Assembly: GCA_000004985.1 (NCBI GenBank) | Contig: GG738846.1 | Length of the DNA stretch: 64,000 nucleotides | Direction: 5' to 3' (one strand) | From: Naegleria gruberi | Lineage: Eukaryota | In this document: positions 492 to 51,756 of the stretch, piece after piece | Layout of the letters: each line of letters starts with the position of its first letter | Position numbering within the stretch: position 1 is the first letter of the stretch | Program-made: the position numbers and the translations under genes | Notes under the pieces: generated by a model | The model's input: the letters and a program-made list of their open reading frames with translations, nothing else | Database searches by the model: none | Told to the model about the DNA's origin: nothing

Positions 492-3404
492 CTATCGACG
501 TTTGTTTTTGAAAAGAGATGAACCTCCACTCGAAACTACCTTCTTTTTTGAGGAACTGTTGTTAGTTTTTGTAGAAGTTGATTTGGTGGATTGTTTAGAG
601 GAGGAGGATGCCTTTTCTAATTTCTTTTGAGCTTCCTGTTTCCTCTTTTCTTCCTTTTCAATTAGAAAGATCTGCAGCTTTGAACATGTTTCACGTAAAT
701 TGTCAATTCCTAGTTGATTTTGAATATGGTCCCATATTTGTTGTTGGTGGTATGGAGTATTAAATAGTTCAAGAATGGTGGTATTTAGTTCTCTAAGTGA
801 TTTGGTCAACTTGGTGAGATAATCATCTTCTCCAATATCTTCATCTTGAACTAATTCCTTAACGTCTTGAACAATATTTCTCAAATCATCTTGGTATCGC
901 AATTCAATATCATCGATTGTGTAGAGTGGTTTGAGAGAATTCAAAAAGTCTGCATGCTTATCACATCCTTCATCGAGTATCTTTTTGAATTGATCATCTG
1001 AATAGTACTTGGATATTGTTAACAGCAAATCAAATTCTCTCACTTTGAAATCTTGAACATTTAAAGTGAATGTATAAAATGAGCATTGCTCACCAGTACT
1101 TTCGTTAATTAAATTGCAAAGCTCGCTCAACTTTTCAAATAGGAACTGATTCTTATATGTTGCTTTTAACATATTCCAATCCCTGTTTTTCAAATCATTG
1201 AGAATATAATTTTCATTAGGATAGTTTCTGAAAACATCTATCAACATTTCAATATCATGATTGGAATACCATTCAAAAACATTATGAATATTCAAATCTA
1301 TAAAATTATTCTTATAGTCGTATTCAGTCCAGGACTGTTTGATTAATGTTGAAACAGAGTAATAATCCTTATGCTTCTTCTTTTGTAAAATTGATTTTAG
1401 CTCTTTTTGTTTCAATTTGCTCATAATGTTCATGTTATAATAATCATAGTCAATTGAATTTTGATTAACATTTGAATTCACCCTGGTAGACATGGCAAGT
1501 TTTTCCTGTGTATATTTTAGCACCAAGTCCTCAATAGACTTTTGAATTAAAAATTTGTAGACATAGACTGTTTTGGTTTGTCCAATTCTATGGCAACGAT
1601 TGGTTGCTTGCTCGTCTGCATGTGGATTCCATGTAATGTCATATTCAATGACAACATTGGCCGAGATCAAGTTTAACCCAACCCCTCCAGCTTTTGTACT
1701 CAGAAGGAATACAAAGTCTTGTGAATTTTCATGTTGAAATGACTCCACAGCCTCTGTTCTTTCACTCTTAGTATTACTTCCATCAAATCTTTGATATTTG
1801 TATTCTTTTAACATTAAATAATACTCAAGAAAGTCCAAAGTTGTAGTATATTGACTGAATATTACAACCTTATTACCTTCTCCATAGTGTTTTTCCAATA
1901 AATAATCCAAAACTATTAATTTGCTACTAGAGTTGATAATTTTTGAAATTAAATGTTCTCTACAAGAAATAGTAGAAAGGAATTTCTTGTAATATCTTGT
2001 AGAATAAATAGGGTTATTGACTGAATCCTCTTCAGTCAATGTGCTGGTTGGAGCAACAGAAAATTGATCCAACAGATAAATAAATGGATGATTGGCAACC
2101 TTGATAGAATCTGAAACAAATGCCAGAGCATCATCCTTTTCGTATCTATTTCTCACATCTTCAAATGTTTCAATTTGAAGTGGTGTTGGTTCCAAAACCA
2201 AAAAATATTCCTCCTTTGGTTTGATAACACCAGCCAGAACTGATTCCTTAGTTCTCCTTAGCATGATATTTCTCATTATTTTCCCAAATCTGGTTTCGTC
2301 CTCCTGACAAATATGTCTAAATTCTTTAAAAGATCCAAACCCAGAGTCTTTCTTTAGGAATGTTATCAGTGAATAAAATTCTTTCAAATTATTTTGAAAA
2401 GGAGTACCAGTCAATAGTAAGAATGAATCGGTGCTGAGTTGACTCATTTTCTTGTATATTTTCCTCTTACTATCCGAAAGAAAATGGGCTTCATCCACCA
2501 CTACATATTTCCAAAATATTTTTGATAATAGTACTTGTTTACCGACAGTCTCTTTTGTTGTAAGGACGACATTGGGGAGTAAGTATCTGGCATTTGCTTC
2601 TTCTGAAAACATACAATATTTCTCTAAAGCTCGTTTTCTTGTTATGCCTCCGTGGTAGGTTATTATTTCAATGTGATCCAATTTCCAAGTTTTGAACTCA
2701 TTTTCCCATGTAGAGAGGACTGAGAGAGGTACAACAATTAAGAATGGTCCCTTAATTTTCTTATACTTGATTAGATAATTAATTGTAGATACAACTTGAA
2801 CTGTTTTTCCAATACCCTTTTTCGAATTAATATTTAGAAATGCTCAAATGTGGAAACATACCATATCATCTGCCAAAATTACATTATTTCTTTCAAAATA
2901 ATTTTTCAATAACCAAACAATCCCTTCTTTTTGATGTTTGTAGAGGGACAAGTTAGAACTTTCTGGATATAATTCAGAGTGAATATCAATATTCAAATCA
3001 GTCTCCTCATAAGATATTGGCTCCTTTGAAATGTACTCCTCTGCTGGATATTTGTTTTTAATTCTATCTGTGTATTGAGTTATCATTTCCTCGGTAATAC
3101 TATACTCCGACCTAGTTTGTTCATTATTCATTAATTCCACAATCTTGTTCGATTTTGTGAAAATTGTGATGCATCTATTTTCTATTTTCAATATTGTGTC
3201 CACTAATTTACTTTTATCAATGGTTGAATCTTCATTTTCTTCACCAACCATTTCTTCTTGCATTAATTCCTCATCACTTTCTTCGTCATCTGATTGAACC
3301 TTTCTTCGTTTCGTGCTGTCTTCCGAATCCGAATCTGTTTGATTTAACTCTTCGGGTGGGAGCATTAAACTGTCATTGCCGAGAGAATTTGCTTTTCGTT
3401 TCAT
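492..3404 (-). CDS. SNF2-family chromatin-remodelling ATPase (DEAH helicase), about 956 aa, 2 exons
   Basis: Exon 1 is 3404..2862 (ATG in AAAAAAATG context) and ends ...ILADDM; intron 2861..2817 (GTATGT..AAAAAG, 45 nt); exon 2 is 2816..492 and begins GIGKTVQ. The join restores SNF2 motif I (ILADDM-GIGKT). Other motifs: DEAH motif II (VVDEAH), motif III LLTGTPFQNNLKEFYSLITFL, and helicase-C motifs (LSTKAGGVGLNL, HRIGQTK). The C-terminal 350 aa with DYxY-rich segments suggests a SANT/SLIDE-like tail. Subfamily not resolved. Confidence 0.85.
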
Positions 3405-3644
3405 TTTTTTTGAAAATTTGGCGCCAGTTTGGTTCTAATTTTTGCTTGACTCTGTTAAAATAACACTAGTTGACCTTTTATTGGTCTTATTGTTAATTCA
3501 GTGAAATTATTCAGCTTTAACTATTCAAATTGCTCTGAGTATTTTTAGTATTCCAAGATCTTGGAATTGACAATCATAGGAATTATCTTCTCACCAGTGG
3601 AACAAAAATTCATCATGTTCCTGTTTCGTTCATCAAATAATCTT

Positions 3645-4121
3645 CTACAATTCATCATCATCAATTAAATTTTCATCATCATCAACCCAAAAGTCTTCAT
3701 CATCTTCTTCATCTCCTTCATCATTTTCCTCTTCATCGGAAGCTGCTCCTCTTGTACGTTCTCTGAGTTGGAGGAATCTCTTCTCCTCCAGTGAACCTAG
3801 TAGAGTGGTTTGATTCTTCTTGGTTGGGAATGAAGAAGGAGAACATTGTTGTGTTTTAAAATCCAAGCCAGCATATTTGCGTAATTGATTGTATTTTAAT
3901 CGGTAAATGCTTTCACCTGTTGAGAGTGATACAAGTTGGAGATTGGAGTTTGAACTGATACTCCTTTTAATTTCATTCTTTAATATTGTGGTTTCATAAG
4001 ATGCTGGAATTCTTGTAGAGAAGGCTGGTGGACAGGATGTATCGTCAATGGTTGCAGTCAAATTTTGGCTCATCGGATCATTTAATGATGAAATAAAATC
4101 GTCTTCTTCGTCTCTTATCAT
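3645..4121 (-). CDS. Hypothetical acidic protein, 158 aa
   Basis: Single ORF with ATG at 4121..4119 in ATTAAAAAATG context. C-terminus is very acidic (DEEENDEGDEEDDEDFWVDDDENLIDDDEL). No recognisable domain. Confidence 0.4.
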   Translation of the reverse strand: MIRDEEDDFISSLNDPMSQNLTATIDDTSCPPAFSTRIPASYETTILKNEIKRSISSNSNLQLVSLSTGESIYRLKYNQLRKYAGLDFKTQQCSPSSFPTKKNQTTLLGSLEEKRFLQLRERTRGAASDEEENDEGDEEDDEDFWVDDDENLIDDDEL

Positions 4122-4201
4122 TTTTTAATAATAAAAAAATTAAATCTATTCATAATTTATTAACAGAATTAAATAAATTAAATAATATTTATAATTACAA
4201 T

Positions 4202-6546
4202 TTACAATTTTGGTCTTGGTGGAGTATTTCTTTCAATGAATTTGGCAGCTGGTCTGTCAGGGTAGAAACGTTCATTATTTTCAGCCATTGAGAGTAAGAG
4301 CTTACTTGGCTTGAATCTGACACTACCATTTGATGAACCATATAAATCTGAAAGTTCTTTCAATCTCTTGACAATCCATTTAGCTCCCTTAGAGTCAGCA
4401 TATTGAAGTAGACCACCTCTGAATGGTGCAAAACCAGTGCCAAAGATCATACCCATATCAATATCTTGAGCTGTTTCAGCAACTCCTTCCTCTAAAATAA
4501 GACATGCTTCATTGACCATAAGCAATACACAACGATCAATGATTTCTTCTGGTGGGAATTTACGACGAAGCTTTGGATCATAACCTGGGAAGACTTGCAA
4601 AACATCAGGATTGATATCTCCCTTCTTTACCTTTTCAGCATGTTCTCCATAAAGGAAGATACCCTTTCCAACCTTCTTACCTAATAATTTAGCATCGACC
4701 AATTTCTTCAAATCAAAGAGAGAATTACCACTTGTTTCAGTAAATCTTTGACCAAGAACTCTCAGAGTTTCTCCAGAGTGATAAGCAACATCAGTACCAA
4801 CTTCATCCAATAATCTGAATGGACCCATTGGCATACCAAATTGCTCAACCATTACCTTATCAATTTGTTGAATTTCACCACCATCATTAATCAAACGACC
4901 TGCTTCAGTCATATAGATACCCAAAATTCTATTTACAATAAATCCAGGACCATCATGACATACAATTGGAATCTTACCCAAGTCGAGTGCCAATTTGTAA
5001 ATGGTTGCAACAGTTTCATCTGAAGTTTGCTTTCCACGAATAATTTCTACGAGTGGCATCTTGTGAACTGGATTGAAAAAGTGCATACCAACAACCAAAT
5101 CTGGATGTTTAGAAACTGTAGCCAATTCATTGATAGAAAGGGTAGAAGTATTGGTAGCAAAAATAACATTTCCAGAACTGGCAAAAGATTTTTCACATTC
5201 CAATAAAATCTTCTTCTTGAGATCCATGTTTTCTACGGCAGCCTCAATGACAACTTGAATACTGGAAGAGTTGTCAGATTTTGGATATTCAGTACCTCCA
5301 GAAACAAGCTTGATTCTGAAAAGAGCTTCCTCTCTTGACATTCTTCCCTTCTTTACATAGTCGTCCATGAAAATTCTCTCAACAATATTCATTCCATTCT
5401 TTACAAATTCAGGTTTGATATCCTTCATAAATATTGGATAATTTTTGTGTGCAAAAAGTTGGGCGATACCACTACCCATAACACCAGCACCAATCACAGC
5501 AACAGATGGAGCAACAGTTCCTGCCTTCTTGGCAGATGTTGGATCATAGGTTACCTTTGTGACTTGTTTCAATTTGTTCAATTTTCCAAATCTCTTCTTC
5601 CAATTCTTGGCATTTTCACGCATAAAGAAGACTGACATTAAATTCTTTGATTCAGCAGTAACTGCCATCTTGCCAAATAATTGTCTTTCCATAAGTAATG
5701 CTCTTCCATTAGACATACCAGATTTAGTGGAATTATAAACAGATTGCAAAGCAGAGTATGGAGCTGGATATTTGCCACGAGTTGTCTTGTCAAGATTTGA
5801 AAGAGCCATTTGAGCAACAAATTTACGTCCAATGAAATTACCTTCCAACAACTTGTCTTGAATTGTTTTTGGAACATATTTAGCAACTGATGGTTGTTTG
5901 TCAACTGTTTTTGCTCCAGCAAAATTTCTACAAGCTGAAAGGAATCTAAATTCATTTTCAATTCTATCTTGATATGGAATAATGACATCCACAATATTTG
6001 CCTTTTTAGCACGAGTAGCTGAGAGAGTCTTTCCAGGTAAAATCAATTCCAAACTCTTTTGTAAACCAACCAATTTACTCATACGAACTGTACCACCAGC
6101 ACCTGGAATCACTCCTAGCATGACTTCAGGCAAACCAACAGTTGTACTCTTATGATCACTGGCTAATCTGTGAGTTGTGGCAAGACATAGTTCAAATCCA
6201 CCACCAAGTGCAGGTCCATGAATGCAACTCAATGTTGGTACTCCAAGACTGGCCAATTTATCCATAGCATCTTGACCATACTTGGCTGCTTTTTCTGCAG
6301 ATTTCTCATCCAAGTTTGGATACATCATATTAATATCGGCTCCTACACAGAAACTATTATTCTTTGCTGATGTGATCAAGAGTGACTTGATTTTCTTTGT
6401 TTTAATACGAGCATCAATAACTTCCAAAATTGATTTGATATCGGAAATGAATTGTCCATCAATAACATTGACTCCAACCAATTCACCTTTAGTAGTTTTT
6501 AATGTTTCCAATATTTCATTCTCACTTTTAATTGTTTTTTCATTTT
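4202..6546 (-). CDS. Fatty-acid beta-oxidation multifunctional enzyme, FadB/HADHA/MFE-1 type (enoyl-CoA hydratase plus 3-hydroxyacyl-CoA dehydrogenase); main exon
   Basis: N-terminal crotonase fold (FCVGADI, GPALGGGFELCLA, GLPEV.LG..PG.GG). Central Rossmann fold VAVIGAGVMGSGIAQ and the HFFNPV signature of 3-hydroxyacyl-CoA dehydrogenase. C-terminus ends -PKL (possible weak PTS1). The track ORF begins with TTG at 6511 and there is no in-frame ATG before the crotonase motif (in-frame TGA at 6559..6557), so an upstream exon is required. A phase-1 acceptor exists at 6547/6546 (TTATTAG|AA). Confidence 0.85.
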
Positions 6547-11089: not shown

Positions 11090-12001
11090 TTAGGCTTTGG
11101 TCGTCTCAATTAAAGAGTTAAGGATACCTTCTGGATCAGTTGAAGTTGGATATTTGGCCATCAGTCTTTTGCAAATATCTTTCATTTGGTCATCCTTAAT
11201 AATCTCTTCGTTCAAAACTAATTTATGATAAATAGCGTTTCTTTCTTCATATACCTTATCTGCAAATACGCGAAACTTGTTGAATTCAATCAAAGAAATT
11301 GGTGCATAGAGATGTTTTCCCTCACTAATTAATTGTTCTGTAAAGTAATCTGCTCCAACATTATCAAGCAATTTCTTTAACAAGTTACCGGTAGATGAAA
11401 CCAACTGCTCACAATAATGAGGGATCAACTTGATAACCATCTTATTTAACTTCTTAACTTCTTTTTTAAGGGATTGTATTTCTTCTGCATGCTCTCTTCT
11501 AAGGGCTTGTATTTCTTCAGAATGCTCTCTTCTGAGGGCTTGTATTTCTTCTGCATGCTCTCTTATAAGGGCTTGTATTTCATCCGAATTCTCTTTCTTA
11601 TAATCGGATAGTTCTCTTTTAAGGGCTTGCATTTCTGCCATCAATTCTTTCCTAGTCTCAGCATTTTCTTTTCTGACGACTTGAATTTGTTCAAATAATA
11701 CATCCATTTTTTTCTTTTCCATACTGGTTTGTTCTTTCAATTCTTCATTCTCTTTCTTCAACTCTAGGTTTTCCTCACCTAATTCTAGGGATTTTTCAGT
11801 TGCTTCAAAGATAGTATTGCTGGAAGAAAGACAAACATCTAGAAGGTTTTTATAATTCCTTGTTTCCATAGAGTTTGAAGGAAACCCGAATAAACTTCCT
11901 TCTCCTTCTTTTGAGATGGTGTACAATTCAGAGGTGGTTAAATCTGTGCGAAGAACAGGTTCTTCGAACAGGATTGGATAAACAACTTCTTGGTGACTCA
12001 T
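11090..12001 (-). CDS. Coiled-coil protein with a tandem 11-aa repeat (EEIQALRREHA, 4 copies)
   Basis: Continuous ORF; first in-frame ATG at 12001..11999 (the track start at 12025 is TTG). A 33-nt tandem repeat in the DNA encodes DEIQALIREHA/EEIQALRREHS/EEIQALRREHA/EEIQSLKKEVK. No enzymatic domain. Confidence 0.5.
   Translation of the reverse strand: MSHQEVVYPILFEEPVLRTDLTTSELYTISKEGEGSLFGFPSNSMETRNYKNLLDVCLSSSNTIFEATEKSLELGEENLELKKENEELKEQTSMEKKKMDVLFEQIQVVRKENAETRKELMAEMQALKRELSDYKKENSDEIQALIREHAEEIQALRREHSEEIQALRREHAEEIQSLKKEVKKLNKMVIKLIPHYCEQLVSSTGNLLKKLLDNVGADYFTEQLISEGKHLYAPISLIEFNKFRVFADKVYEERNAIYHKLVLNEEIIKDDQMKDICKRLMAKYPTSTDPEGILNSLIETTKA
11462..11584 (-). repeat. Coding tandem repeat, 33-nt unit, about 4 copies
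   Basis: Near-identical units gcatgctctcttctaagggcttgtatttcttc / gaatgctctcttctgagggcttgtatttcttc / gcatgctctcttataagggcttgtatttcatc are visible on the plus strand; they lie in frame inside CDS 11090..12001. Confidence 0.6.
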
Positions 12002-12287
12002 ATTGAACGAATTTTTTTTGTACAATATATTTCTTCAAGGTTTAAATCCTAAAGTTATTAATGTGCAATATGTATTGGTGCTTGTAACAGAACTCTACTT
12101 TAAAGTTTATAACATTAGACAATTAAGGCCACCTTTTAACTTTATCTTCTTCTAAGAGATTACAAAACATGTAAACCATGAACCAAAGCTCACCACAATG
12201 TTGGTACTTTTTTGTTGACATAAGTATAAAAAGATTGTTCATTAGTTTCACAGTGTTGTCTGTCTGGCAAGAGAAATTTAAATCAAC

Positions 12288-14430
12288 ATGATACACAAAA
12301 AAATGTCTTCAAATAATTTGCTACTTGTTGGGAGTGGAATAGGAGGTGGTGGATTTTTACTTGTTTATTTGGCACAAAAATTATATAATCATTTTAATTC
12401 ATCATCACCATCATCTATTACTACTACTACTACTGCTAATTCCGAAGAAAATAATTCGTTATATAATTTATCCTATTTGATGAATGAAATATTCCCTTTT
12501 CACTTTCTTCCCGATAATTCAAATAGTGGATCAACAGTGTTTGTTGAAATGAAATTAAATGATAAGAAGAAATTAAATCAATTAATTAGTCTTTTGAGAG
12601 ATTATAATACATGTAAACAGGCTATTTTCAAGGAAATGTTATTTCATAAACTTGCACGAATAATCAAGCCAGATACTACTTTGGAGGATGTTAATAGTAA
12701 GGAGTTTTTCAAGAGGGAGAAACAGATTCATACTTGTTTGTGGATTTTATTGCATTGTTTAGTTTTGGTTGGAAATGATTCAATTGATGTCTTGCTTTCA
12801 ATTTTTAGATTGGATGATTTTTATCAATTCTTTATGGAAAAGGATTTTACAAAACACCAAGCAATGAAAATATTCAATTTAAAAGGTGATTCAGTATTCA
12901 ATGCAAGTGAATCATTCTTGTTTTCCATTGATATTATTTGGTTGGCATATGCAATTTTAGGTCACTTGTATTGTCAATCATTGAATAGCGAGGAGAAGAA
13001 TAATTTGCAATATTCGAAAAAGCATTTGGAGGTTTTACAAATTAATAAGGAAATGTTTGAACAATTGCTTTATTTATCGCCTTCTGGAGTGAATAATTCA
13101 AAACAAGAGGGAGAAAGATACAAGAGGAATATCTTATTTACAAGTGATAATCAAATTGGATACGATAATTTAGTTAAATTTTTAAATACTACAAACTTAT
13201 TGATGAGATGTGATGACAATACTCTAGTTCAACTATCATTATCAATATTTGGCCAACTAGTTGCCAATGTACAGGATGAAAATGTAATTTTGAAGAATTT
13301 CAATGTAAGTTTGAGTTTATGAATTTTTGAGATTTAATATTCATAGTTTTTAAAAAACACTGAACATTTATTGCTATGTACCGATGAGAATGTTATTCTT
13401 TCCCTAGGAAAATGTATTTTCACTCTATTTATCAAGAATGTTGCTATAATTTCAAATATTGTTAATAATCCTAAAATTGTGAATGAAATTATTTATTGGT
13501 CTCTTAATTCACAACAATCATCAACTAGAATTCAATGTAAGTGTTTATATTAATTAATTTTAAATTTAACATTGTAAAGACATGAATATATTGTACATTT
13601 TAATATTACAAAGCGAGAAATTTACTATTCAAGCTATCACCAATCCTAAAATTAACATTCTTGGAAATATTCACAATTTAATTACCAAATCAGATCCAAT
13701 ATTAGAATTTGTTTTAGTGCAATTAATTTATGGAATTTCTACTCATCCATCCTGTCACAAATTTATTATCGAATTTCATCATGAAAAACTTAATTTTGTA
13801 ACCATATTGAAAAACTTGACATTTTCCAAGCACTCACTCATTCGATACTATTGTATAATGATCTGGAGTAATTTATTGACCATGTACACAAAGAGTTCAG
13901 AACAAGTGAATTATGAGAAAATTTATGACAATAGATTCACAAGATACTTGTGTAAAAATGAACAAGTACTCAATTTAATCATGTTTTCATTTAAGGAGGA
14001 GAAGGAATTACTATTGAAGAAATCAATAACTAATTTGTTGAAAGATATTTGTTCATTCAGACAAAACGATTATGAACGCATCATACTATTTGAGCATTTT
14101 AATTTGTTATTTGAATGTGTGGATTTATTACACTTTCAAGTGAACTATTTGATGGATGTTTATCAGAACAGGGATGGACAATTGGTTGAATCTGCAGAGA
14201 TGGAGACAGTCGAAGGAAGTTTACAATTATCACTTGCATTATTCCATCTCATCACTACCATCGTACGAATGTCTCCAGACTCTAATAATGAAACATTGGA
14301 CATTTTACTTAATCAGTACCAAATCAAGAGGTACATTACTGATCTACTTTTTATTTTACAAAAACGTGGAGATAATAAGAATGTTACAATAATTTCAACC
14401 TTGTCAAATTCAATTTTTAAACTTTCCTAA
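12288..14430 (+). CDS. Hypothetical protein, about 685 aa, 3 exons; N-terminal Gly-rich hydrophobic segment, helical repeat-like body
   Basis: Exons 12288..13304, 13347..13536, 13580..14430; the start could instead be ATG 12303 (CACAAAAAAATG context). Introns 13305..13346 (GTAAGT..TCATAG, 42 nt) and 13537..13579 (GTAAGT..TAAAG, 43 nt). Phases are consistent: 2058 nt. It joins three track ORFs. No family recognised. Confidence 0.55.
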
Positions 14431-14453: not shown

Positions 14454-15659
14454 TTACTCTATTATACAATTACTGTTTCTCTTGTTGGGTATCGTTCCGT
14501 TATCGCTGTTAGGTGAGCCAGTTGTTGGCGATCTAGGCATGTATCTCACTAATTGCGACAGGGAATATTTACAGCTGTATGATATTGCTGTTTCTATTAA
14601 ATCGTGTGAGAAATGTTTCAAAACCGAAAACTTACCAATGCACTTCTTAACACCTTGTCCTGATTTAGCAGAAGTTTCAATATATCCAACACAATTACCA
14701 ATCTTGTTGGCCAATGCCACTCCTTCATCAAATGTGACCACTCCATACTTTGAAAATTTAGAATCGATATAATATTTGAGTGAACCTGATTCGTTGATAT
14801 TCGATATTCTCAAATCCAATTTGGTTCCACATAAAAGGATTGGAACATTTGGTGCACATAAATTTAATTCTCTTATCCAAATATTTAAAACATTTTGAAA
14901 GCTCGATGTGTTCATTAAATCAAAACAACATATAAACAAGTCACATCCTGTATAACTCAGAGGTCTATCAATTTGATTTTAAAGCAACATTTCAATAAAA
15001 ACATACCTTATTTTGTCATAATCTTCTGATCCAGCAGTATCTATAATAGTGACAGCCCATGTCTTGTTATCAAATGTTGAATATGTTGTAAAATTATCAA
15101 AAATAGTTGGAAGATATTGATCTGATAAAAATTCATCATTGGCAAACCTCCCCAACAATGAAGTCTTTCCAACAGCACCTATAAATAATGAATTATTTAC
15201 AAAAATAATTATTAACCAAGAAACTTACCATCTCCAACCACTTTGTCAACAAAAAGTTATTGTAAAAAACATAACAAGCCCCTACTTACCCACAATTTTA
15301 ACAGGCATTGATTGATTAACTGCACTTGAAGGTGAAATACTCAAGACATTTTCCTCACTACCAGTAGAAACTAGAGCTGAATTTAAATGATTTGCACTGT
15401 TATTACCATTATTAGAAGTGGAGTTTCCATTATTATTATTGGGTGAATGGAAGAAAATGTAATCTTCTTTACTCCACGGTGACTTTTTAAATTTGATATC
15501 TTTTTTCTCGAATGATCCTGTTTTTAACAATATAAAATCATTATACACAATTTCTGAATAAATATTTTTGAATTTTGTAATCTTGTTTCGTCTATTATTT
15601 GATTTTTGCATTTTCTGAGTTTCATTTGGATAAATCATTGAACAAACTGTCCCAAGCAT
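14454..15659 (-). CDS. Rho/Rac-family small GTPase with a 120-aa N-terminal extension, 4 exons including a 12-nt micro-exon
   Basis: Exons 15659..15290, 15240..15229 (TGGTTGGAGATG), 15178..15007, 14964..14454. Introns 15289..15241 (49 nt, GTAAGT..AAAG), 15228..15179 (50 nt, GTAAGT..TATAG), 15006..14965 (42 nt, GTATGT..GATAG). Spliced product reads ...[39 protein letters not shown]...[28 protein letters not shown]...LCGTKLDLR...ETSAK...CIIE. The P-loop, switch regions, DTAG, TKLD and SAK motifs are all in place. The track only shows the first and last exons. Confidence 0.8.
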
Positions 15660-15759
15660 ATATTAGTACAAATTATCGTGTGAATTTATCATCATTATTA
15701 AAATTATCAAATATATAAAAAGGCACACACATATTTCAAAGTAATTATTATAAATATGA

Positions 15760-16476
15760 TTAAATTAAATGTGTGTAAATAAAATCATTACCTTGTTCCC
15801 ATAAAATTTCATCTTCACAAGCTCTGTACCAACTCTTACAAACCAAACAAACTCTATAAAATGAAATTCCATTCAAATATGTAAATATTTTAATCAAAAT
15901 TTCATTTGGTAAATCAGATGCCAAACCATATAAATTTCTCATTGATCCATTTTCATCCAATCCAATCAACATTTGATTAGAAATTACATTTCCATGTATC
16001 GTAATTCTCCTATCATCATCCAATGTTCTCATTGAAACGACAGAATTTGCATACTTGACACTACTATTTCTCTTCTGACCAAATAAACCCTTCCTACTTC
16101 GATGAGATTTTACATATTTTGCAGGTGATGATGATGGTGAAGATGTTGGTGGTATTGTTGAAGCATTTATGGATGATGGTGATGATGATGATGAATTAAA
16201 TGAAGAAATTATATTATTCGAATTGGATGAAGAATTTAATGATGATGGAATGCTCACATCACTACTAGTGGTCAATGACAATCCGGGAATGTTCAAATTG
16301 TTATAATTATGATTGGTGGTAGTTATGTGAGGATTGGTAGAAGGAGAAAGTTGCCGAATGTTCGTTGTTGTGGTTGTTGGTGGTGATGTGTTGTTGTTGT
16401 TATTGATGGTGGACTTTCCACCTCCAACAATCAACATTTTTTCTTCTATTTTTATTAAACAAGTGACAATTTCCAT
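15760..16476 (-). CDS. F-box protein exon; low-complexity N/S/T-rich region then F-box LPNEILIKIFTYLNGISFYRVCLVCKSWYRACEDEILWEQ
   Basis: ATG 16476..16474, with an alternative ATG 16437 in GAAGAAAAAATG context. The F-box sits at the C-terminal end of this ORF. The last 10 codons (GNDFIYTHLI*) begin with a GTAATG donor at 15791, so the ORF may not terminate here (see finding on fusion to the downstream Rho GTPase). Confidence 0.6.
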   Translation of the reverse strand: MEIVTCLIKIEEKMLIVGGGKSTINNNNNTSPPTTTTTNIRQLSPSTNPHITTTNHNYNNLNIPGLSLTTSSDVSIPSSLNSSSNSNNIISSFNSSSSSPSSINASTIPPTSSPSSSPAKYVKSHRSRKGLFGQKRNSSVKYANSVVSMRTLDDDRRITIHGNVISNQMLIGLDENGSMRNLYGLASDLPNEILIKIFTYLNGISFYRVCLVCKSWYRACEDEILWEQGNDFIYTHLI

Positions 16477-17063: not shown

Positions 17064-20000
17064 ATGGAATCATCGTATCATCAACAAGAAAAATCCGCAG
17101 AAGAAAACAAAGGTGCACATTTTGTACAACGTTCCTCAAGTAAAAACATGAACACTAAAGATGATTCTCACCATAAGGCTTCCAGTATGAGTAATGGCTC
17201 TTTTGGTCTTACAGTGGAGGAATTAACGGAGATGCATCAAACTAAAAACCTAAATATCTTATCCCAATGGGGAGGATTCACAGGTCTATCGAAACTCTTA
17301 CGAACAGACCTCAAAAGAGGTATTGATTGGGATAAAGAGGGAGACTTTGAAGAAAGAATTAATACCTTTGGCATCAACGTCTATCCCGAACCACCTGCTA
17401 GAAGTCTTATTAGAATATTCTTTGACTCGCTTAATGATACAACACTAATTATTCTTCTGGTATTTGCTTTCTTTTCTATGGTTTTCGGTGTTGCTTTCCC
17501 AGATGAAGAGGAGGAAAGACCATATGGTTGGATTGAAGGCTGTGCAATTTTGTTGGCTGTAGCTATTGTTACAACTGTAGTTACTGTAAATGACTACTCT
17601 AAGGAAAGAAAGTTTAGATCACTCACAAAAGAGTCTAAGAAAGTTCAAGTCAAAGTAATTAGAAATGGAAACAATCACAGTATTCTTGTAGACAGTATCC
17701 TTGTCGGCGATATTGTTGAAATTGAACAAGGTGATGGTATTCCAGGTGACGGACTGTGTATTGAATCAAATCAGTTAAAAACGGACGAATCTGTCATGAC
17801 AGGCGAACCTGATCTCATTAAGAAAAATACCACAGAAAGTCCATTCTTACTCAGTGGTTGTACAGTTGCTGAAGGATCTGGTAAAATGATTATTGTTGGT
17901 ATTGGTGTAAATAGTGAATGGGGAAGAACTCTTCAAAGTTTAAAGGAGGCTGATGAAGATAAGGGAGAAACCCCACTCGAACAAAAGCTAGACCAACTCT
18001 CTGTAAATATTGGTAAGGTGGGTATGCTCTTTGCTGCCTGTACTCTAGTGGTCCTTCTAATTGGTTATTGGATTAAAAAGTTAATGTACACCACAACATG
18101 GAATGATTCAACAAATGGATTTGAAGAAGCATGGGCTGATAAGAATATTGTTGAAATTGTCAAGTTCTTTGTCATTGCTTTAACCATTATTGTTGTTGCT
18201 GTTCCTGAAGGTTTACCATTGGCTGTCACTATTGCTTTAGCTTACTCTGTGCGTAAAATGATGAAAGACCAAAACTTGGTTCGTCACTTGGCGGCTTGTG
18301 AAACCATGGGAGGAGCAAACAATATTTGCTCCGACAAGACTGGTACACTTACTTTGAATCAAATGAGAGTGACCCATGCTTACTTTGGAGGTCGTTATTT
18401 TGGAGATCAGCTTGGATCGTTATTATCCACCCTGAGCTCAAACATTCTTCAAATTTTGATTGATGGTATTGTGGTAAATTCCAAAGCAAATCTTGTAAAG
18501 AATGAAGATAATAAGAATAAGGAGTATGCCACTCAGGGAAGTAAAACGGAGGCAGCTCTTTTGCTTTTGATTGTCAAACATCTCAATCAAACAATCGATT
18601 CCTACAGAGAACGAAGATCAGACCTGATGAGCGAAGAAAGAGGATGTCATTTGCAACTTCCATTCTCATCCAAGCTCAAAAGAATGAGTACCTTAATTCC
18701 AAATCCTGATGGAGATACAAAATATAGGTTATTTACAAAGGGTGCCTCTGAAATTGTTGTCAAACTTTGCTCTAAATATATGAGATCAGATGGAAGTCTT
18801 GAGACTATGACTAAGGAAAAAGAACAAGAAATTGTGCGTTACATTGAAGAAATGGCCAATCAAGGCCTCAGAACAATCTGTCTTGCATATAGAGATGTAA
18901 ATCCAGAGGTTGATTTTTCTTCAAGGGAGGAAGAAACAACATATCTTGATAACTTGGATCCAGTAAGTTTGGAAGAAAATCTCATCTGTATTGGTGTTGT
19001 TGGTATTAAGGATCCTCTCAGACCAGAAGTCCCAGCAGCTATTGCCCAATGTAAAAAATCTGGTATTATTGTTAGAATGGTTACTGGTGACAATATTCTT
19101 ACTGCCAAATATATTGCTAGGGAATGTGGTATCTTGAGCAAGGATGGTATTGCCATTGAAGGTCCTGATTTTAGAAAAATGACTCCAGAACAAGTTCATG
19201 AAATTCTTCCAAGACTCCAAGTTATGGCTAGAAGTTCTCCAACAGATAAGTATAATCTTGTCAAATATTTAAAGAAGAGAGGTGATGTAGTTGCTGTCAC
19301 AGGAGACGGTACTAATGATGCTCCTGCTCTTAAAGAGGCTGATGTTGGTTTGAGTATGGGTTTGAGTGGAACTCAAGTTGCTAAGGAAGCATCAGATATC
19401 ATTATTCTAGATGACAATTTTTCTTCAATTGTGAAAAGCGTTTTGTGGGGCAGATCTATCTTTGAAAATATCAGAAAGTTCTTAACCTTCCAATTGACTG
19501 TCAATATTGTTGCCTTGGTTTTGACCATTGTTTGTGCTATCAGCTCAACTTTTGTTAACCACTCGGGTGGATTTAAGCCTCCTCTCAGTCCTGTGCAAAT
19601 GTTGTGGATTAACTTGATCATGGACACCTTTGCAGCTCTTGCGCTCGCCACTGAACCCCCAATCCCTGAATTGTTGGACAGAAAACCTCATGGAAGAAAA
19701 GAAGGTCTAATAACCGTTAAGATGTGGATCTTTTTGATTGCCCAGGCTGTTTTCCAACTTACTGTTTTGTTTGTACTTTACTATGGTGCTAAGACATACA
19801 GAGCTGGTTCATTCTCCTTCGCAAGAGATGATGATGAAGTAAGAACTGTTGTTTTCAATGCATTCGTGTTTTGTCAAGTATTCAATGAGTACAATGCAAG
19901 AAAGATCAATTTTGAGTACAATATCTTTTCAGGATTGCACAAGAGTATCATGTTTGTTGTTATCAGTGTAATTATTATTGTTTTGCAAATTTTAATGGTA

Positions 20001-20258
20001 AATTTTGCATACTATGACCCTTCATTGCTTGCCACAGGAAAGGCTGATGGCACTCACCCATCTAACTTTACTCAAACCATTCCACTCAACTGGTATCAAT
20101 GGTGCTTGACTGTTTCCATTGGTTTTCTTGGTATCCCATATGGATATGTTATTAGATTTGTTGCTAGAATTATTTTTGCAATTATTGAAAGAAAGAGAAA
20201 GAACAAAGTTTTTGATGAGCAATCTGAAACCGTTACTACTCCAGACAGTGATTTTTAA
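17064..20258 (+). CDS. Plasma-membrane-type calcium-transporting P-type ATPase (PMCA, type IIB), 1064 aa
   Basis: Single continuous ORF. Phosphorylation motif CSDKTGTLT, the P-type hinge VTGDGTNDAPALKEADVGLSMG, TGES-like MTGEP, and 10 predicted TM segments. The N-terminal region has PMCA-like regulatory features. Confidence 0.95.
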   Translation: MESSYHQQEKSAEENKGAHFVQRSSSKNMNTKDDSHHKASSMSNGSFGLTVEELTEMHQTKNLNILSQWGGFTGLSKLLRTDLKRGIDWDKEGDFEERINTFGINVYPEPPARSLIRIFFDSLNDTTLIILLVFAFFSMVFGVAFPDEEEERPYGWIEGCAILLAVAIVTTVVTVNDYSKERKFRSLTKESKKVQVKVIRNGNNHSILVDSILVGDIVEIEQGDGIPGDGLCIESNQLKTDESVMTGEPDLIKKNTTESPFLLSGCTVAEGSGKMIIVGIGVNSEWGRTLQSLKEADEDKGETPLEQKLDQLSVNIGKVGMLFAACTLVVLLIGYWIKKLMYTTTWNDSTNGFEEAWADKNIVEIVKFFVIALTIIVVAVPEGLPLAVTIALAYSVRKMMKDQNLVRHLAACETMGGANNICSDKTGTLTLNQMRVTHAYFGGRYFGDQLGSLLSTLSSNILQILIDGIVVNSKANLVKNEDNKNKEYATQGSKTEAALLLLIVKHLNQTIDSYRERRSDLMSEERGCHLQLPFSSKLKRMSTLIPNPDGDTKYRLFTKGASEIVVKLCSKYMRSDGSLETMTKEKEQEIVRYIEEMANQGLRTICLAYRDVNPEVDFSSREEETTYLDNLDPVSLEENLICIGVVGIKDPLRPEVPAAIAQCKKSGIIVRMVTGDNILTAKYIARECGILSKDGIAIEGPDFRKMTPEQVHEILPRLQVMARSSPTDKYNLVKYLKKRGDVVAVTGDGTNDAPALKEADVGLSMGLSGTQVAKEASDIIILDDNFSSIVKSVLWGRSIFENIRKFLTFQLTVNIVALVLTIVCAISSTFVNHSGGFKPPLSPVQMLWINLIMDTFAALALATEPPIPELLDRKPHGRKEGLITVKMWIFLIAQAVFQLTVLFVLYYGAKTYRAGSFSFARDDDEVRTVVFNAFVFCQVFNEYNARKINFEYNIFSGLHKSIMFVVISVIIIVLQILMVNFAYYDPSLLATGKADGTHPSNFTQTIPLNWYQWCLTVSIGFLGIPYGYVIRFVARIIFAIIERKRKNKVFDEQSETVTTPDSDF

Positions 20259-21650: not shown

Positions 21651-24600
21651 TTAATTGATGGACCAAGAGAGAATTTCACTTTGATTTTCATCACTTGCAA
21701 TGAAACCTTCATCAATAGAATTAATCATCATTTCACCACATAGTGGACATTCAGAGGATAAGATTTCATCCAACTCTCTCAACTCATCTTGGAGTTGAGA
21801 CAATTCCTTTTGATCGAGGAGACCACTATTGGAACCAGAACTTTGATTACCACTACTACTATTGGCATTCAATAATTCAACTTGTCTATTGTAGAGTCTT
21901 CTCTTTTCCTCTAATTGTTTTAACTTTTCTCTGCCATTTTCAGATTTGGTGTGCTTGATAACCTCTTCGACAAGGGCATCAGCTCTGAAAACATGTTGGC
22001 AAGGGAATAAGTAGAAATCTGTTGTTAAAACAGACTTGGATGAAAGATCACATTTGGCATTGGAAGTAATAAACCCATAACGATGTTTCAACTCCTTAAT
22101 ATCTTCTCTAATCTCACTAGCTGTTTGAGTTGCCAATTGCATATCATTTTTCAACTTTTCAATTTCATTCTTATATTGATCCAATGATTTACAAATTTCT
22201 TCCTTAAAGTCATCAATTCTAGAAAAATCAGGGAAGTATGGTAAAATATCTTCTAATTTGATCTTGTCGGTATAGCTCAAAAATTCAATAGCCTGTTTGA
22301 CACCAGTATTATGGTTAATAACATGCTTTGCAATCTTGAGCCACAACTTTTTCCTATTTTCATCATCATCAGGTTTATCAGCACATTCTCTGGCCAAGTC
22401 AATGTCATCATTTTCCAAGGCGAGATCCACAGCGTCATCAAATAATTGCATAGCACTGTATAATCTAACACATGCCTCTATCTTTTTCTTTTGACTGCAA
22501 ACACGAAGAGCATACTTTGGATCATAGAAATTATTTTCACCTTCTGTATCCAGGAAGGTCAAGAGTTTTTCATCATCATCTAAATCAGCATACAATGTTA
22601 AAAGTAAATTGTGGATAGCTGGATCTTCATTCTCTTGTTTCTTGATACACCACTCCAAGTATCTAATGACGTGATTTTGTTGATCATTTGTCAAGAGTGA
22701 GGAAAATTGTTGATTTTCGTTGAGTTTTTGTGTAATTTTGGCATTATCATCATCTTCGTCGAGAGATTCAGTCAGGGCATCTTCATCATCATCTTCTGGA
22801 GACTTCTTTTTAGTATAGCTTGACAACATGGAATTGTTACTGGAGAGAGCTGTAGTGATATTAAGGTTGTTAGTTAGAGTATGGAAAGTGCTATTGAGAG
22901 TGATTGGTGGTAGACTACCAGTATTATTCATAGAGGCTTGTTGATGGGAAATGTATCTCATCAGCGCAGGGATTAATTTACCAGAATCCAAGAAACGTTT
23001 TTGTGTCAATGTATTGACAGTTTCCTTTGGTAAATGTTGCATTAATATTGGAGAAAACTTGTAAAAGTAATCTTCGTACGCTCTTGTTGTACAAAACTTG
23101 TTAAGAATTTCTAAAGCTTCACTATACTCCTTTTCAGTAATACAGTGGCTAATAACTCTTTCATAATCTTCAATAAGCATGGCATAGTACAAAACTTCTT
23201 CTGTTTGGCCGTGACTGGTAATCAATCTGAATGTTGTTTCCTTGTTTAAGTATTTCTTGTTATCTTCGAGGAACTTTCTAAACTCATTCTTAATGACTGT
23301 ATATTGTTCTTCAAAGCTCACTTGATTAGAGCTTGTAATGTCACGTGTTTGTTGAGATTGAAGTGAAACCAAATCATACAATTCGTTAATCTTATCCAAA
23401 TACATTTCTGTTAACCAGGTACACAAACAACATAATTGTGTTGCATCTTGATTTTCTGTTTTGATATTCTTTTTAAGAGATTGTAATTTGGCCAAAACAT
23501 AGATACGTAAAGCATCTTTTTGACCCTTGTTATGGAAAGCTATGGAAACTTGTTCAAAACTCTTGGACGTCATGGCATAAATGTTGGCAGCATCATTGAA
23601 TCTACCAACTTTGAAGAAATAGTCAGCCTTTGCAGATAATACAATATCTTTTGTTTTTGGATCTTGTTTACATAATTTGAAGGCAACATCAAAATAGGAT
23701 TCCTTAGAAGATTTAGGATCCAAAGCTTGTTCCAAGTACAATTTCCAAACATCTCTTTCCTCATCCTCTATCAAAATTCTCCAAACACTTGAATTACTAT
23801 ACAAATAAATGAATCTATTGGAAGTATCTGTACACATTCCAATCAATTCACCACATGTTCCAACTGGGAAGGTTTTTTGATAGACAACCCTAATGTCTGA
23901 CAAGGAGATTTCGCCAACATTTGTAAGGGAAGCCATGAAGAGATTTAAATTATTACTACTTCCAGTAATGTTTGAATTATCAGTGGTGCCATATCCAAAG
24001 AATTTATCAATGCCTTGAATACCCTGTTGATTAGTTTGATTGTCATTCATTGGATCAACCAATAATGAGCTTAACATCATTGGGTTAACGCTACTAGCAG
24101 TACATAGACCTGGTGGTTGCATTAAAATTTGTAACTTTTCAGGATACAATACAAACATGTGGAATTCGCTAATAGCAATTGAAATAACTTGAGATGAACT
24201 CTTATTATCATATTGAATTACTTCGCTCTCAGTTATAATACTTGTGCCACTTTGTCTAGATTGAGGATTTGCAAAGTTCAAAACACCATGATAAACACCA
24301 GCATTACTGAGCCATGCAAATGATTCTTGATCAGTGAGAGAGGATGAATCCTTTTTGAATAAGTGCAATTCACTATTTGGTAACATGTCACTTCTCTTTG
24401 CAGGCAATTCCTTATATTTTAACAAATCAAATGATTGTTTGTATGAAGCAAATACATCTTGAAGAGTAGGACCTCCAATAAATTCGAACATTCTCAATCT
24501 TGTAGAAACAAGAACCAAATAGGTGTTGAATGAATTCTTAGTCTTTGGGAAGTGTTCAATTTCAATTCCTGTAATTGGTCCAGTACTGACCAACATGTCG

Positions 24601-25403
24601 CAATCGTTAAAGTCGAAAAGTAATTTCAATGAGTTTTTAACTGGATCTTTCAAATCATCATAGAGAATACATTCGAAAATCTTACTGTCATTAGTACCCA
24701 ATAAAATAGTTCCAGTTTCTTCTCTATTACATTGTTCTGCATCCCATCCAATACTTTCAATTATCATATTTTTCAATTTGGCAACCAATTTTGGGTTCTT
24801 GTTATATTGTGTGTTAAAATAATAGTTATCACCATTGGTCATTGATATCAAAACGTGGAAACCAGATGGATCAATGAAGCACTTGTGTATTTTTTCATCA
24901 TCATCATCATCATTGTGGGATAATCTAAATTCTCTATATCTTTCAAAATCATCATCAACATAGATACAAGTATTTTGATTTGTGGCCAATAATAAATTTC
25001 CTTTTGATGCGCGAACATGAGTGAAAGATTTAGAAAATTCAAACTTGATTTCTTCAACTTCAAATCTATCTTGTCCCATATTTTGTTGTTGTAATAAATC
25101 GGAAGGTAAAGTTTCACCATCGTGTTTGTTACTGGAGGCCAAACCTTCGTTTTCATCATCGTTATCTTCATCACTATCAATTCCATTTAAATTATAAGCT
25201 GATGATAATAATGTTGATGTATCATTGGTTTTTTTGTTGTTAGTTAAATTGGATGAGCTGTTTGTTTTATCACCAGCTGTAGTAAAATCCTTTGTTGTTG
25301 AAAAACCCAATTTCTTGTTGGTTGTTTGTCTGGATGAAAAACCACCCAATCCAACATCCCAATCACCACCATTTAACAAATCCTCTTCATCATGGGGAAG
25401 CAT
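21651..25403 (-). CDS. Vps18/Pep3-like HOPS/CORVET core subunit (beta-propeller, clathrin-heavy-chain-repeat alpha-solenoid, C-terminal RING-H2 and CxxC tail), 1250 aa
   Basis: Single ORF; ATG 25403 in CAAAAAATG context. A CHCR-like helical region is followed by the C-terminal zinc motif ...FPCQHVFRADALVEEVIKH... then a coiled coil and the ECPLCGEMMINSID tail typical of Vps18. N-rich inserts explain the extra length. Vps11, Vps8 and Vps41 are not fully excluded. Confidence 0.65.
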   Translation of the reverse strand: MLPHDEEDLLNGGDWDVGLGGFSSRQTTNKKLGFSTTKDFTTAGDKTNSSSNLTNNKKTNDTSTLLSSAYNLNGIDSDEDNDDENEGLASSNKHDGETLPSDLLQQQNMGQDRFEVEEIKFEFSKSFTHVRASKGNLLLATNQNTCIYVDDDFERYREFRLSHNDDDDDEKIHKCFIDPSGFHVLISMTNGDNYYFNTQYNKNPKLVAKLKNMIIESIGWDAEQCNREETGTILLGTNDSKIFECILYDDLKDPVKNSLKLLFDFNDCDMLVSTGPITGIEIEHFPKTKNSFNTYLVLVSTRLRMFEFIGGPTLQDVFASYKQSFDLLKYKELPAKRSDMLPNSELHLFKKDSSSLTDQESFAWLSNAGVYHGVLNFANPQSRQSGTSIITESEVIQYDNKSSSQVISIAISEFHMFVLYPEKLQILMQPPGLCTASSVNPMMLSSLLVDPMNDNQTNQQGIQGIDKFFGYGTTDNSNITGSSNNLNLFMASLTNVGEISLSDIRVVYQKTFPVGTCGELIGMCTDTSNRFIYLYSNSSVWRILIEDEERDVWKLYLEQALDPKSSKESYFDVAFKLCKQDPKTKDIVLSAKADYFFKVGRFNDAANIYAMTSKSFEQVSIAFHNKGQKDALRIYVLAKLQSLKKNIKTENQDATQLCCLCTWLTEMYLDKINELYDLVSLQSQQTRDITSSNQVSFEEQYTVIKNEFRKFLEDNKKYLNKETTFRLITSHGQTEEVLYYAMLIEDYERVISHCITEKEYSEALEILNKFCTTRAYEDYFYKFSPILMQHLPKETVNTLTQKRFLDSGKLIPALMRYISHQQASMNNTGSLPPITLNSTFHTLTNNLNITTALSSNNSMLSSYTKKKSPEDDDEDALTESLDEDDDNAKITQKLNENQQFSSLLTNDQQNHVIRYLEWCIKKQENEDPAIHNLLLTLYADLDDDEKLLTFLDTEGENNFYDPKYALRVCSQKKKIEACVRLYSAMQLFDDAVDLALENDDIDLARECADKPDDDENRKKLWLKIAKHVINHNTGVKQAIEFLSYTDKIKLEDILPYFPDFSRIDDFKEEICKSLDQYKNEIEKLKNDMQLATQTASEIREDIKELKHRYGFITSNAKCDLSSKSVLTTDFYLFPCQHVFRADALVEEVIKHTKSENGREKLKQLEEKRRLYNRQVELLNANSSSGNQSSGSNSGLLDQKELSQLQDELRELDEILSSECPLCGEMMINSIDEGFIASDENQSEILSWSIN

Positions 25404-25563: not shown

Positions 25564-26928
25564 TTATTGTTTATTATTTGCTTGTTCCTTCTTCTTTTTA
25601 ATATCTCGTTTCTTCTTTTGAAGTGTGGAACGAACCTGGAATACATTCTCAATAGCTTGCTTGAAAATATCAAAGTTATAATTAATGAGTCCAACCTTTT
25701 CATAACTGTCCTTTGTTAATAGGCAAACCAAAGCCAAATACTTATTGACCTCTCGTAAATATAATACTGTTCCATTATTGAGTTTAATGACAGCTCCTGT
25801 TTCTTCATCATAGGCACTGCTTGATCCCTCATTTCCATTAATTCTATTTCCATAAATACAACTTATATCAATGACAACATCAATCATATCACTACACAAC
25901 TCATAGGTAGTATTATCAACAGGTGTTGCATCTGTGGCAATATAAATTTTAGAAACAACATCGAAAAGGAAGGCCTTTTCTAATCTGGAATTTGTAACGA
26001 GCATATCCAACAAGTTTTCCAATGTTGGTAATTGTGGAATTAATTTTTGAATAACCTTACTGAAAGCTTCAAAAATAGAGTGATCATAAATACTTGTCAT
26101 GTGGAATCTAATCTTGACATTTGGTGGTACTTTAACTTCGGAATCATTCAATTCATCATTAAGTCTTTGTTGAATATCTTGTTGGATTTGAATTTTGTGA
26201 TCATCACTAATACCGTCCATTTTGTGAATAAAAATCTCAAAAGCAATTTGATCATTGACTTTGCTTGCCTCTTGAATGGTTTCAGCCAATTTGCTAATAC
26301 TGTCCAAGTAATTGTCTTGAGCATCAACAACATATACTATGGCTCCACAACCACTGAAAATTAATTCACATTCAAAATTTTGTGTATCTCCAAATAAATC
26401 AATTTGTCCAGGGAAGTCCCAAATTTGAAATTGTACAAAGGTATTATTCGAAATATCATTCTTTACAATTTTGTTAGTTGATTCCAAGAATAAAGTTTCG
26501 TGTGGCGACATTTTCTGGAAGACAACTTTTTGAATACTTGATTTACCACTTCTTCTTAAACCCATGAGCAAGATACGAGGTTTATCATCATCGAGAGAAT
26601 TATTATTTTGTGCTATGGACTTTCTGAGACTTGAACTTAATTTTTGCTCATTGGCCATATTAGCACCAACCCCAACACTACCAATAACAACATGATTATT
26701 TAGACCGGAATCTTGTTTTCGGTTTGGTGTTGTTGGATTTCTTTGTTGTTTATCTAAATTATCGCCCACATTTGGCGGTTGAGAATAACTTCCAACAAAA
26801 TCTTCATCATCACCATAACCATAGTCATCTCCAGTAAAATTTATATTTTGATCATAGTCTTGATCCATATCATCGTCATATCTTTCATCAATTTCATCCG
26901 ATAAATCAAAATTGAATTGGTGAGCCAT
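25564..26928 (-). CDS. Rag GTPase C/D (Gtr2-like) of the TORC1 amino-acid sensing pathway
   Basis: Likely start ATG 26928..26926 in AAAAAAATG context (MAHQFNF...); the track extends to 27003. G1 motif [14 protein letters not shown] and WDFPGQ (switch II) are followed by the roadblock/longin-like C-terminal domain. D-rich N-terminal extension and K-rich C-terminus. Confidence 0.9.
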
Positions 26929-27111
26929 TTTTTTAAATTTATTAATTATTAATAAAAAAAATTGCCAATGACAATTATTGCATTGTGATATGAAATTCTT
27001 CATAATAAAATGTGTGGAGATGCGGGGGTAAAAGGGGGAATGAAGAAGGAATATAAGAATAGGGTGCTATTAAAACTGAAGCAAAGAAGACTTGCAAAGT
27101 AAAAAACTTAG

Positions 27112-51602: not shown

Positions 51603-51756
51603 TTTTTTATTCGAGGTTTTTTGATTGAATAATGATATTATTATCAAATAAAACAATGAAATACATCATAGTATTTATAATATGAATTTTAATCTATTTT
51701 TCTCATTAGCTATTATAAAAAGTTGTCTAATATTAATTAATGTAACAATTAAAAAA

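Follow-up and report, generated by a model that had tools for sequence, protein, structure and literature searches.

A 12-nucleotide (nt) segment on the minus strand of Naegleria gruberi DNA (15240..15229) very probably serves as a real internal coding exon, one that the mRNA of a gene for a fused F-box/Rho protein normally includes. We refer to the whole stretch of 64,000 nt that was analyzed as the window, and coordinates are positions within it unless another locus is named. Evidence for this reading includes the anatomy of the sequence around the exon, the uniqueness of the splicing path that runs through it, a match to the Ras profile that begins at the first profile position, the structure of the gene in N. 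lovaniensis, and the pattern of conservation between the two species. The gene has these features.

14454..16437, minus strand: the whole coding region, with 6 exons and 5 introns, a stop-free translation of 551 amino acids (aa), and a CAAX-like CIIE at the end, followed by TAA.
15792..16437, minus strand: exon 1, with the ATG at 16437, a low-complexity N-terminus, and the F-box at residues 174-217 (located with tblastn).
15647..15791, minus strand: intron 1, 145 nt, GTAATG...ACAG, phase 1, at a position common to N. lovaniensis (151 nt there).
15290..15646, minus strand: exon 2, 357 nt, a linker region that ends with M P V K I V plus G.
15241..15289, minus strand: intron 2, 49 nt, GTAAGTAGG...GACAAAG, phase 1 (same position in N. 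lovaniensis, 72 nt).
15229..15240, minus strand: exon 3, the micro-exon, 12 nt, TGGTTGGAGATG, on the unique path that completes the P-loop.
15179..15228, minus strand: intron 3, 50 nt, GTAAGTTTC...TTTATAG, phase 1 (same position in N. lovaniensis, 48 nt).
15007..15178, minus strand: exon 4, 172 nt, starting with (G)AVGKT and ending with (R).
14965..15006, minus strand: intron 4, 42 nt, GTATGT...GATAG, absent in N. lovaniensis.
14636..14964, minus strand: exon 5, 329 nt, RPLSY...TKLD...Rho insert...TSAK...KKCI.
14594..14635, minus strand: intron 5, 42 nt, GTAAGT...TAATAG, absent in N. lovaniensis.
14454..14593, minus strand: exon 6, 140 nt, the C-terminal tail, NCIIE and then the stop codon TAA.

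The upstream F-box exon was found by comparing the window to the N. lovaniensis ortholog (P0001) with tblastn, which placed residues 147-251 of that protein at 16116..15793. In the 551-aa model, residues 174-217 match both the F-box-like family of Pfam (PF12937, 58.3 bits, with a cut-off of 24.3) and the F-box family (PF00646, 40.1 bits, with a cut-off of 20.5), and residues 332-509 match Ras (132.2 bits). Among solved structures, the closest are TC10, Rac1, plant ROPs, and RhoA (E values of 1e-40 to 1e-34). When the protein is aligned to TC10 and Rac1, the G3 (DTAG), G4 (TKLD), and G5 (TSAK) motifs are all present, and between G4 and G5 the segment RISNINESGSLKYYIDSKFSKYG spans the insert region of TC10 and is longer than TC10's insert. 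Because the closest structures are Rho-type and the aligned region includes the Rho insert, we assign the GTPase half of the protein to the Rho family. The original prediction of a Rho GTPase was right about the family, but the gene does not encode a plain Rac: the product is a 551-aa F-box and Rho fusion from six exons. We looked for a second Rho gene within the 64-kb window and found none.

In switch II (DTAGSEDYD), the position of the catalytic Gln61 of Rac1 is occupied by serine in Naegleria and Willaertia and by proline in Acrasis. Because serine replaces Gln61, the protein is probably an atypical Rho that is deficient in hydrolysis; its membership in the family by sequence stands. At the place of a putative CAAX prenylation box, the C-terminus is C-I-I-E, and the orthologs end with CIIQ, CIIG, and CGIM. 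The fusion of an F-box to a Rho domain is also found in N. lovaniensis, Willaertia, Acrasis, and several proteins from metagenomes or transcriptomes, and one relative with this architecture (P0298) has added Kelch repeats. The F-box is the adaptor motif of SCF (cullin-1) ubiquitin ligases, and RhoBTB proteins combine a Rho domain with a cullin-3 substrate adaptor. The domain content suggests that the F-box/Rho protein is a putative SCF adaptor. It resembles RhoBTB by analogy, in that an atypical Rho domain shares a polypeptide with a module for recruiting a cullin-RING ligase (here, the F-box). Unlike in RhoBTB, there is no BTB match in Pfam, which rules out membership in that family; also, the F-box lies N-terminal to the Rho domain and the CAAX-like tail is kept. 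A literature search returned nothing specific on F-box/Rho fusions.

Around the micro-exon, the minus strand reads GTG G, GTAAGTAGGGGCTTGTTATGTTTTTTACAATAACTTTTTGTTGACAAAG, TG GTT GGA GAT G, GTAAGTTTCTTGGTTAATAATTATTTTTGTAAATAATTCATTATTTATAG, and GT GCT GTT GGA AAG ACT. Extraction by coordinate places the end of exon 2 at 15290 (...ATG CCT GTT AAA ATT GTG G) and the start of exon 4 at 15178 (GT GCT GTT GGA AAG ACT), so the exon at 15240..15229 and the sizes of the 49-nt and 50-nt introns that had been proposed were correct in every number. The micro-exon encodes the last two bases of Val335, then Val336, Gly337, and Asp338, and then the first base of Gly339. These residues correspond to V8-D11 of Rac1 plus the first base of G12. 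The P-loop (GxxxxGKT) is GDGAVGKT at residues 337-344, and this G1 motif is present only if the micro-exon is included. The borders, at 15244..15223, read AAAG, TGGTTGGAGATG, GTAAGT, with a canonical AG upstream and GT downstream of an exon of no more than 15 nt.

Introns 2 and 3 are both phase 1 and GT-AG. They are ordinary short U2-type introns, each with a strong GTAAGT donor. The micro-exon is symmetric (phase 1-1) and encodes the last part of strand beta-1 together with the P-loop's first glycine. Intron 2 has an acceptor (ACAAAG) that looks weaker than those of the neighboring introns (ATAG or TTAG); AAAG acceptors are also seen among the window's candidate introns and in intron 4 of the N. 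lovaniensis gene. If intron 2 is retained, an in-frame TAG follows 9 nt in (GGT AAG TAG), which is the in-frame stop on read-through that had been claimed. If intron 3 is retained, TAA follows after five codons (GGT AAG TTT CTT GGT TAA).

From the Met codon at 15308 to 15165, we enumerated all GT..AG paths that contain zero, one, or two introns, each 20 nt or longer. There were 208 such paths. Of these, 34 are open and keep the downstream exon in frame, and exactly one of the 208, the micro-exon path, gives the complete 11-residue P-loop segment. The original prediction went further and held that the reading frame itself could be completed only through the micro-exon. This holds for the P-loop but not for the frame: removing 15289..15179 as a single 111-nt intron also leaves an open, in-frame path, which reads MPVKIVGAVGKT. 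Skipping in this way keeps the reading frame but loses VVGD, and with it some of strand beta-1 and the P-loop's first glycine. Donor and acceptor of the 111-nt composite intron are both good. The predicted mRNA is ...AAAATTGTGGGTGCTGTTGG... with skipping and ...AAAATTGTGGTGGTTGGAGATGGTGCTGTTGG... with inclusion. The two products differ by 12 nt, and the junction strings that distinguish them are CCTGTTAAAATTGTGGTGGTTGGAGATGGTGCTGTTGGAAAGACT for inclusion and CCTGTTAAAATTGTGGGTGCTGTTGGAAAGACT for skipping. Public RNA-seq data for N. gruberi have the accession PRJEB23822.

We also weighed two-intron paths with exons of 2 or 3 nt and did not adopt them. One of these, MPVKIVGNGAVGKT, formally retains GxxxxGKT. 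We rejected it since it depends on a GTAGGG donor and an exon of 2 nt; furthermore, it matches no ortholog and ignores the conserved GTAAGT donor.

With the micro-exon, the match to Pfam's Ras profile scores 133.6 bits and covers profile positions 1-157, versus 119.0 bits and positions 8-157 without it. Also, a search of both strands of the 64-kb window for AG-TN-GTN-GGN-GAY-G-GT gave a single match, versus 0 in 100 shuffles. This single occurrence, together with the single path to the P-loop, argues that the micro-exon is more than a chance arrangement.

A comparison of intron positions in Rac genes of related amoebozoans had been proposed. N. gruberi belongs to Heterolobosea (Discoba), not to Amoebozoa, and we redirected the comparison accordingly. 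The best relative of the product of exons 2-6 is a 569-aa F-box and Ras protein of N. lovaniensis (63% identity over 99% of the query), followed by proteins from Willaertia magna (558 aa) and Acrasis kona (472 aa). The N. lovaniensis ortholog, C9374_000127 (F-box domain-containing protein; P0001, at locus L001), is 57-63% identical. We mapped the public ortholog proteins from N. lovaniensis, Willaertia, and Acrasis exactly onto their own genomic DNA. The exons of the N. lovaniensis gene lie at 3001-3754, 3906-4199, 4272-4283, 4332-4566, and 4611-5025 of L001. The third of these (4272-4283) is 12 nt long, reads TGGTTGGTGATG, lies between introns of 72 nt and 48 nt, and encodes VVGD; the public protein maps to its genome only with this exon. 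Introns 1-3 share their positions and phases between the two species, so that N. lovaniensis has the same micro-exon at the same place in the gene.

The two genes are alike in their domain architecture as well, and they differ in other respects. The flanking introns are unrelated in sequence, and introns 4 and 5 of N. gruberi are missing from N. lovaniensis, which has instead a 44-nt intron (L001 4567-4610) that is 63 nt downstream of the position of N. gruberi intron 4. The persistence of a conserved micro-exon amid intron turnover in the same gene is mildly interesting. The N. lovaniensis genome was annotated by using BRAKER1 with RNA-seq hints (PMC6125883). This RNA-seq-guided model supports the micro-exon at best indirectly, as support for the junctions is assumed from the annotation method.

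The second genome also bears on whether the two introns could be spurious. If an error in the assembly or sequencing, or decay of a pseudogene, had inserted extra bases into contiguous P-loop codons, then two introns might be mimicked. Nothing speaks for this beyond the general possibility of a sequencing error that was raised with the original prediction. In N. lovaniensis, for which there is an independent PacBio assembly, the exon and intron positions are the same and the lengths and sequences of the introns are different, and both of the supposed inserts in N. gruberi have canonical GTAAGT...AG ends. Finding this structure in another genome that was sequenced independently excludes an assembly artefact. 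A pseudogene is at odds with the intact open reading frame and the signature of purifying selection (see below). Overall, we give this explanation practically no chance.

In Willaertia and Acrasis, the four residues are not split off by short introns. In Willaertia, VVGD is contiguous with the upstream codons, and the Acrasis ortholog has no introns, so VVGD is uninterrupted there as well. Because VVGD is contiguous in both of these genes, the residues belong to the protein. The 11-residue P-loop segment that contains VVGD is invariant in all five of the proteins that we aligned: the Naegleria, Willaertia, and Acrasis orthologs and P0006 (a further F-box-Rho protein). The micro-exon as such is carried by two species, N. 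gruberi and N. lovaniensis, which limits the depth of the conservation test. The only intron of the Willaertia ortholog (L002 4100-4147) splits GCT G/TT GGA AAG, which is 6 nt downstream of where intron 3 lies in Naegleria, with no difference in phase. Either this intron slid, or it may have been inserted independently at a nearby site. We also looked for an ortholog in N. fowleri, or in an N. gruberi-like metagenome contig, by synteny with the RagC gene; none was found, and the synteny is not kept.

Between the two Naegleria species, 11 of the 12 bases of the micro-exon are identical, and the sole change (GGA to GGT) is synonymous. In the DNA alignment, AG/TGGTTGG(A/T)GATG/GTA(A/T)GT (with slashes at the splice sites) forms an island of identity. 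The interiors of the introns have an identity of 0.62, as compared to 0.68-0.71 for shuffled controls, which is no better than shuffled sequence. Across the GTPase part of the gene, identity is 0.80, 0.87, and 0.45 at the first, second, and third positions of codons, which indicates purifying selection on the gene. Because the micro-exon is an island amid randomised introns and changed only at a third position, the 12 bases evolve as coding sequence.

These comparisons also speak to whether the 12 nt might never be used, so that 15289..15179 is one 111-nt intron, the protein is a degenerate pseudo-GTPase without VVGD, and the match to the P-loop is a relic. It is the case that a simple scan that joins open reading frames, and is blind to the micro-exon, picks exactly the 111-nt path, and that the protein is already atypical, with serine in place of the catalytic Gln61. 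But a relic would decay like the surrounding intron, and yet 11 of the 12 bases and both of the internal splice sites have been kept. Synonymous sites are saturated between these species, and at a neutral per-site identity of about 0.49, the probability of such a match is about 0.003. Furthermore, all of the other G-motifs are intact. We consider it highly unlikely that the 12 nt are a relic, and we return to the micro-exon as a coding exon.

How might so short an exon be spliced? In a genome with introns of 40-50 nt, splice sites are presumably paired across the intron. Twelve nucleotides would probably be too few to hold a complex at the upstream 3' site and a U1 complex at the downstream donor side by side. 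If the exon cannot hold both complexes, then introns 2 and 3 are most likely removed one after the other; the order in which this would happen is pure inference. After the first splice, the micro-exon would be joined to its neighbor in an exon of 184 nt or 369 nt, and the remaining intron would then be an ordinary one. Steric hindrance on short exons is known from classic experiments. For plant micro-exons, it has been argued that the two flanking introns cannot be spliced simultaneously and are removed sequentially (PMC8831610). Retention of either intron would end translation ahead of the GTPase domain, and skipping of the micro-exon would cause the in-frame loss of VVGD and remove the first glycine of the P-loop. 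That retention and skipping would both be harmful explains the purifying selection on the micro-exon and on both of its splice sites.

Since skipping is open and in frame, the micro-exon could also be a regulated cassette that is alternatively included, in which case the isoform without VVGD would have a dead or nucleotide-free GTPase module. Besides the frame, the good donor and acceptor of the 111-nt composite intron would allow it, and exon skipping has been detected in transcriptomes of N. gruberi generally (PMC6142364). However, the flanking introns are randomised, so there are no conserved intronic elements, and nothing points to regulation. The structure of the pre-mRNA is ordinary: around the micro-exon, we found no unusual fold that would pair the splice sites (the minimum free energy is -20.1 kcal/mol versus a mean of -21.7 for shuffled sequences, z = 0.55), and we rejected an RNA structure that brings the splice sites together on this basis. 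Also, the loss of four residues from beta-1 and the P-loop would be more likely to misfold the domain than to yield a useful variant. Regulated inclusion is thus unlikely in our judgment. We regard with slightly greater doubt a specific version of it, in which this conserved, frame-neutral micro-exon would act as a splicing switch between a nucleotide-binding protein (inclusion) and a putative SCF adaptor with a dead P-loop (skipping).

The introns on either side of the micro-exon had been described as minimal. They are not, as the same gene has two 42-nt introns. We made a crude scan of the 64-kb window by joining open reading frames across donors of the GTAAGT or GTATGT type. It found 39 donors, and 16 of these 39 had a compatible acceptor at 55 nt or less, which suggests that 37-55 nt is the common class of intron in the window. 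Given the two 42-nt introns in the gene and the 16 donors with a short acceptor, sizes of 49-50 nt look ordinary. (In N. lovaniensis, the median length of introns is 80 base pairs; PMC6125883.) At the donor at 15289, the crude scan settles on the 111-nt skip and is blind to the micro-exon, which illustrates how prediction from open reading frames fails.

That such exons are usually missed by gene finders was part of the original prediction. We searched a database of 5.8 billion clusters with the product of exons 2-6 and with a profile built from five orthologs; neither search gave an N. gruberi or N. fowleri protein for this gene. The database includes the N. gruberi proteome, as a neighboring protein was present. 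Exact look-ups of four models (551, 547, 223, and 219 aa) found none of them in a collection of 15 billion sequences that includes sets derived from transcripts. We conclude that the searched protein sets contain no model with the GTPase half. There may be an N. gruberi model with exon 1 only. The N. gruberi gene seems to have been missed or mis-modelled in the public protein set, as expected, but in N. lovaniensis the gene is annotated and the annotation has the exon.

At other loci, we noticed two gene models that may be incomplete. In the window, an intron-less open reading frame for a RagC/D-like protein (25564-27003, minus strand, 479 aa from the first ATG) is 100% identical to XP_002682914.1 (NAEGRDRAFT_60190, whose scaffold is about 1.0 Mb long), which has 364 aa and covers 76% of it. 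Relatives from N. fowleri (449 aa) and a metagenome (458 aa) cover 91-94% of the open reading frame. From these lengths, the XP_002682914.1 model probably lacks some of the protein, most likely at its N-terminal end. In N. fowleri, a Ras-superfamily gene (L009 14581-15389, minus strand) has an annotated product of only 131 aa. Its P-loop (GDSGVGK) does not share the frame of the putative start exon (MSNTKKTGDVDIKVVMLG), and this model may be truncated around a P-loop intron.

By Pfam or motif, the window also encodes a P-type cation ATPase (17064-20258, plus strand), a Vps18/Pep3 homolog (21651-25403, minus strand), a family-10 fucosyltransferase (27398-29149, plus strand), and a PPR-repeat protein (51682-53064, plus strand). 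The exact ATPase open reading frame has no entry in the gene-position index. A motif scan identified another open reading frame (49602-51656, minus strand) with two GKS P-loop motifs, which is possibly EngA/Der-like. The lowest G+C content in the window (0.274) is at 12001-14000, just downstream of the Rho gene, and this region has candidate introns of 42-43 nt on the plus strand at 13305 and 13537.

Conserved micro-exons are documented in animals as well as in plants. Plant micro-exons of 15 nt or less lie in conserved domains; for example, a 9-nt exon of AP2 encodes VYLG (PMC8831610). Like the Naegleria exon, they are very short, often phase 1, within the core of a domain, conserved along with the gene structure, and often unannotated (PMC8831610). 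They belong to another kingdom and other genes, have longer flanking introns, and are backed by RNA-seq, whereas the Naegleria case is known from sequence. That tiny exons are missed by gene finders is already well known. At 12 nt, this exon is at the short extreme, and none seems to have been described in Heterolobosea; our literature search returned nothing specific on micro-exons in Naegleria.

Some other genes of the Rho family also have introns near the P-loop. A Rac1-like gene of a shark is interrupted by a phase-2 intron in its Gly12-equivalent codon, one base from the position of Naegleria intron 3, and in a Dictyostelium Rac gene the P-loop is in a 41-nt exon. A walnut RAC2 gene and the Rac gene of Thecamonas have no P-loop intron. 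Among the genes compared, no intron position was identical to the Naegleria pair and no exon was as short as 12 nt. We also observed an unrelated Rho paralog on a Naegleria-like metagenome contig (L011 60-875) with consecutive exons of 37 nt and 39 nt around the P-loop (the second small exon is CMLYCYANNQFPE), with intervening introns of roughly 36-41 nt. In Naegleria-like organisms, small P-loop exons seem to recur.

The practical value of the finding is in annotation: a conserved Rho-family gene of a model amoeboflagellate is apparently absent from the public protein set, and a homology-guided look at one split P-loop recovers the whole gene. It also shows that Heterolobosea, whose introns are few and very short, have exons of 15 nt or less and conserve them, and it provides a data point on intron-defined splicing with exons that are too short for two spliceosomes. 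In biological terms, the combination of an F-box with an atypical Rho domain, which extends from Acrasis to Naegleria, is probably more interesting than the micro-exon. If the doubtful idea of a splicing switch were true, then Naegleria would tune a hybrid of a ubiquitin ligase and a Rho protein by the choice of a micro-exon, for example during the change from amoeba to flagellate.
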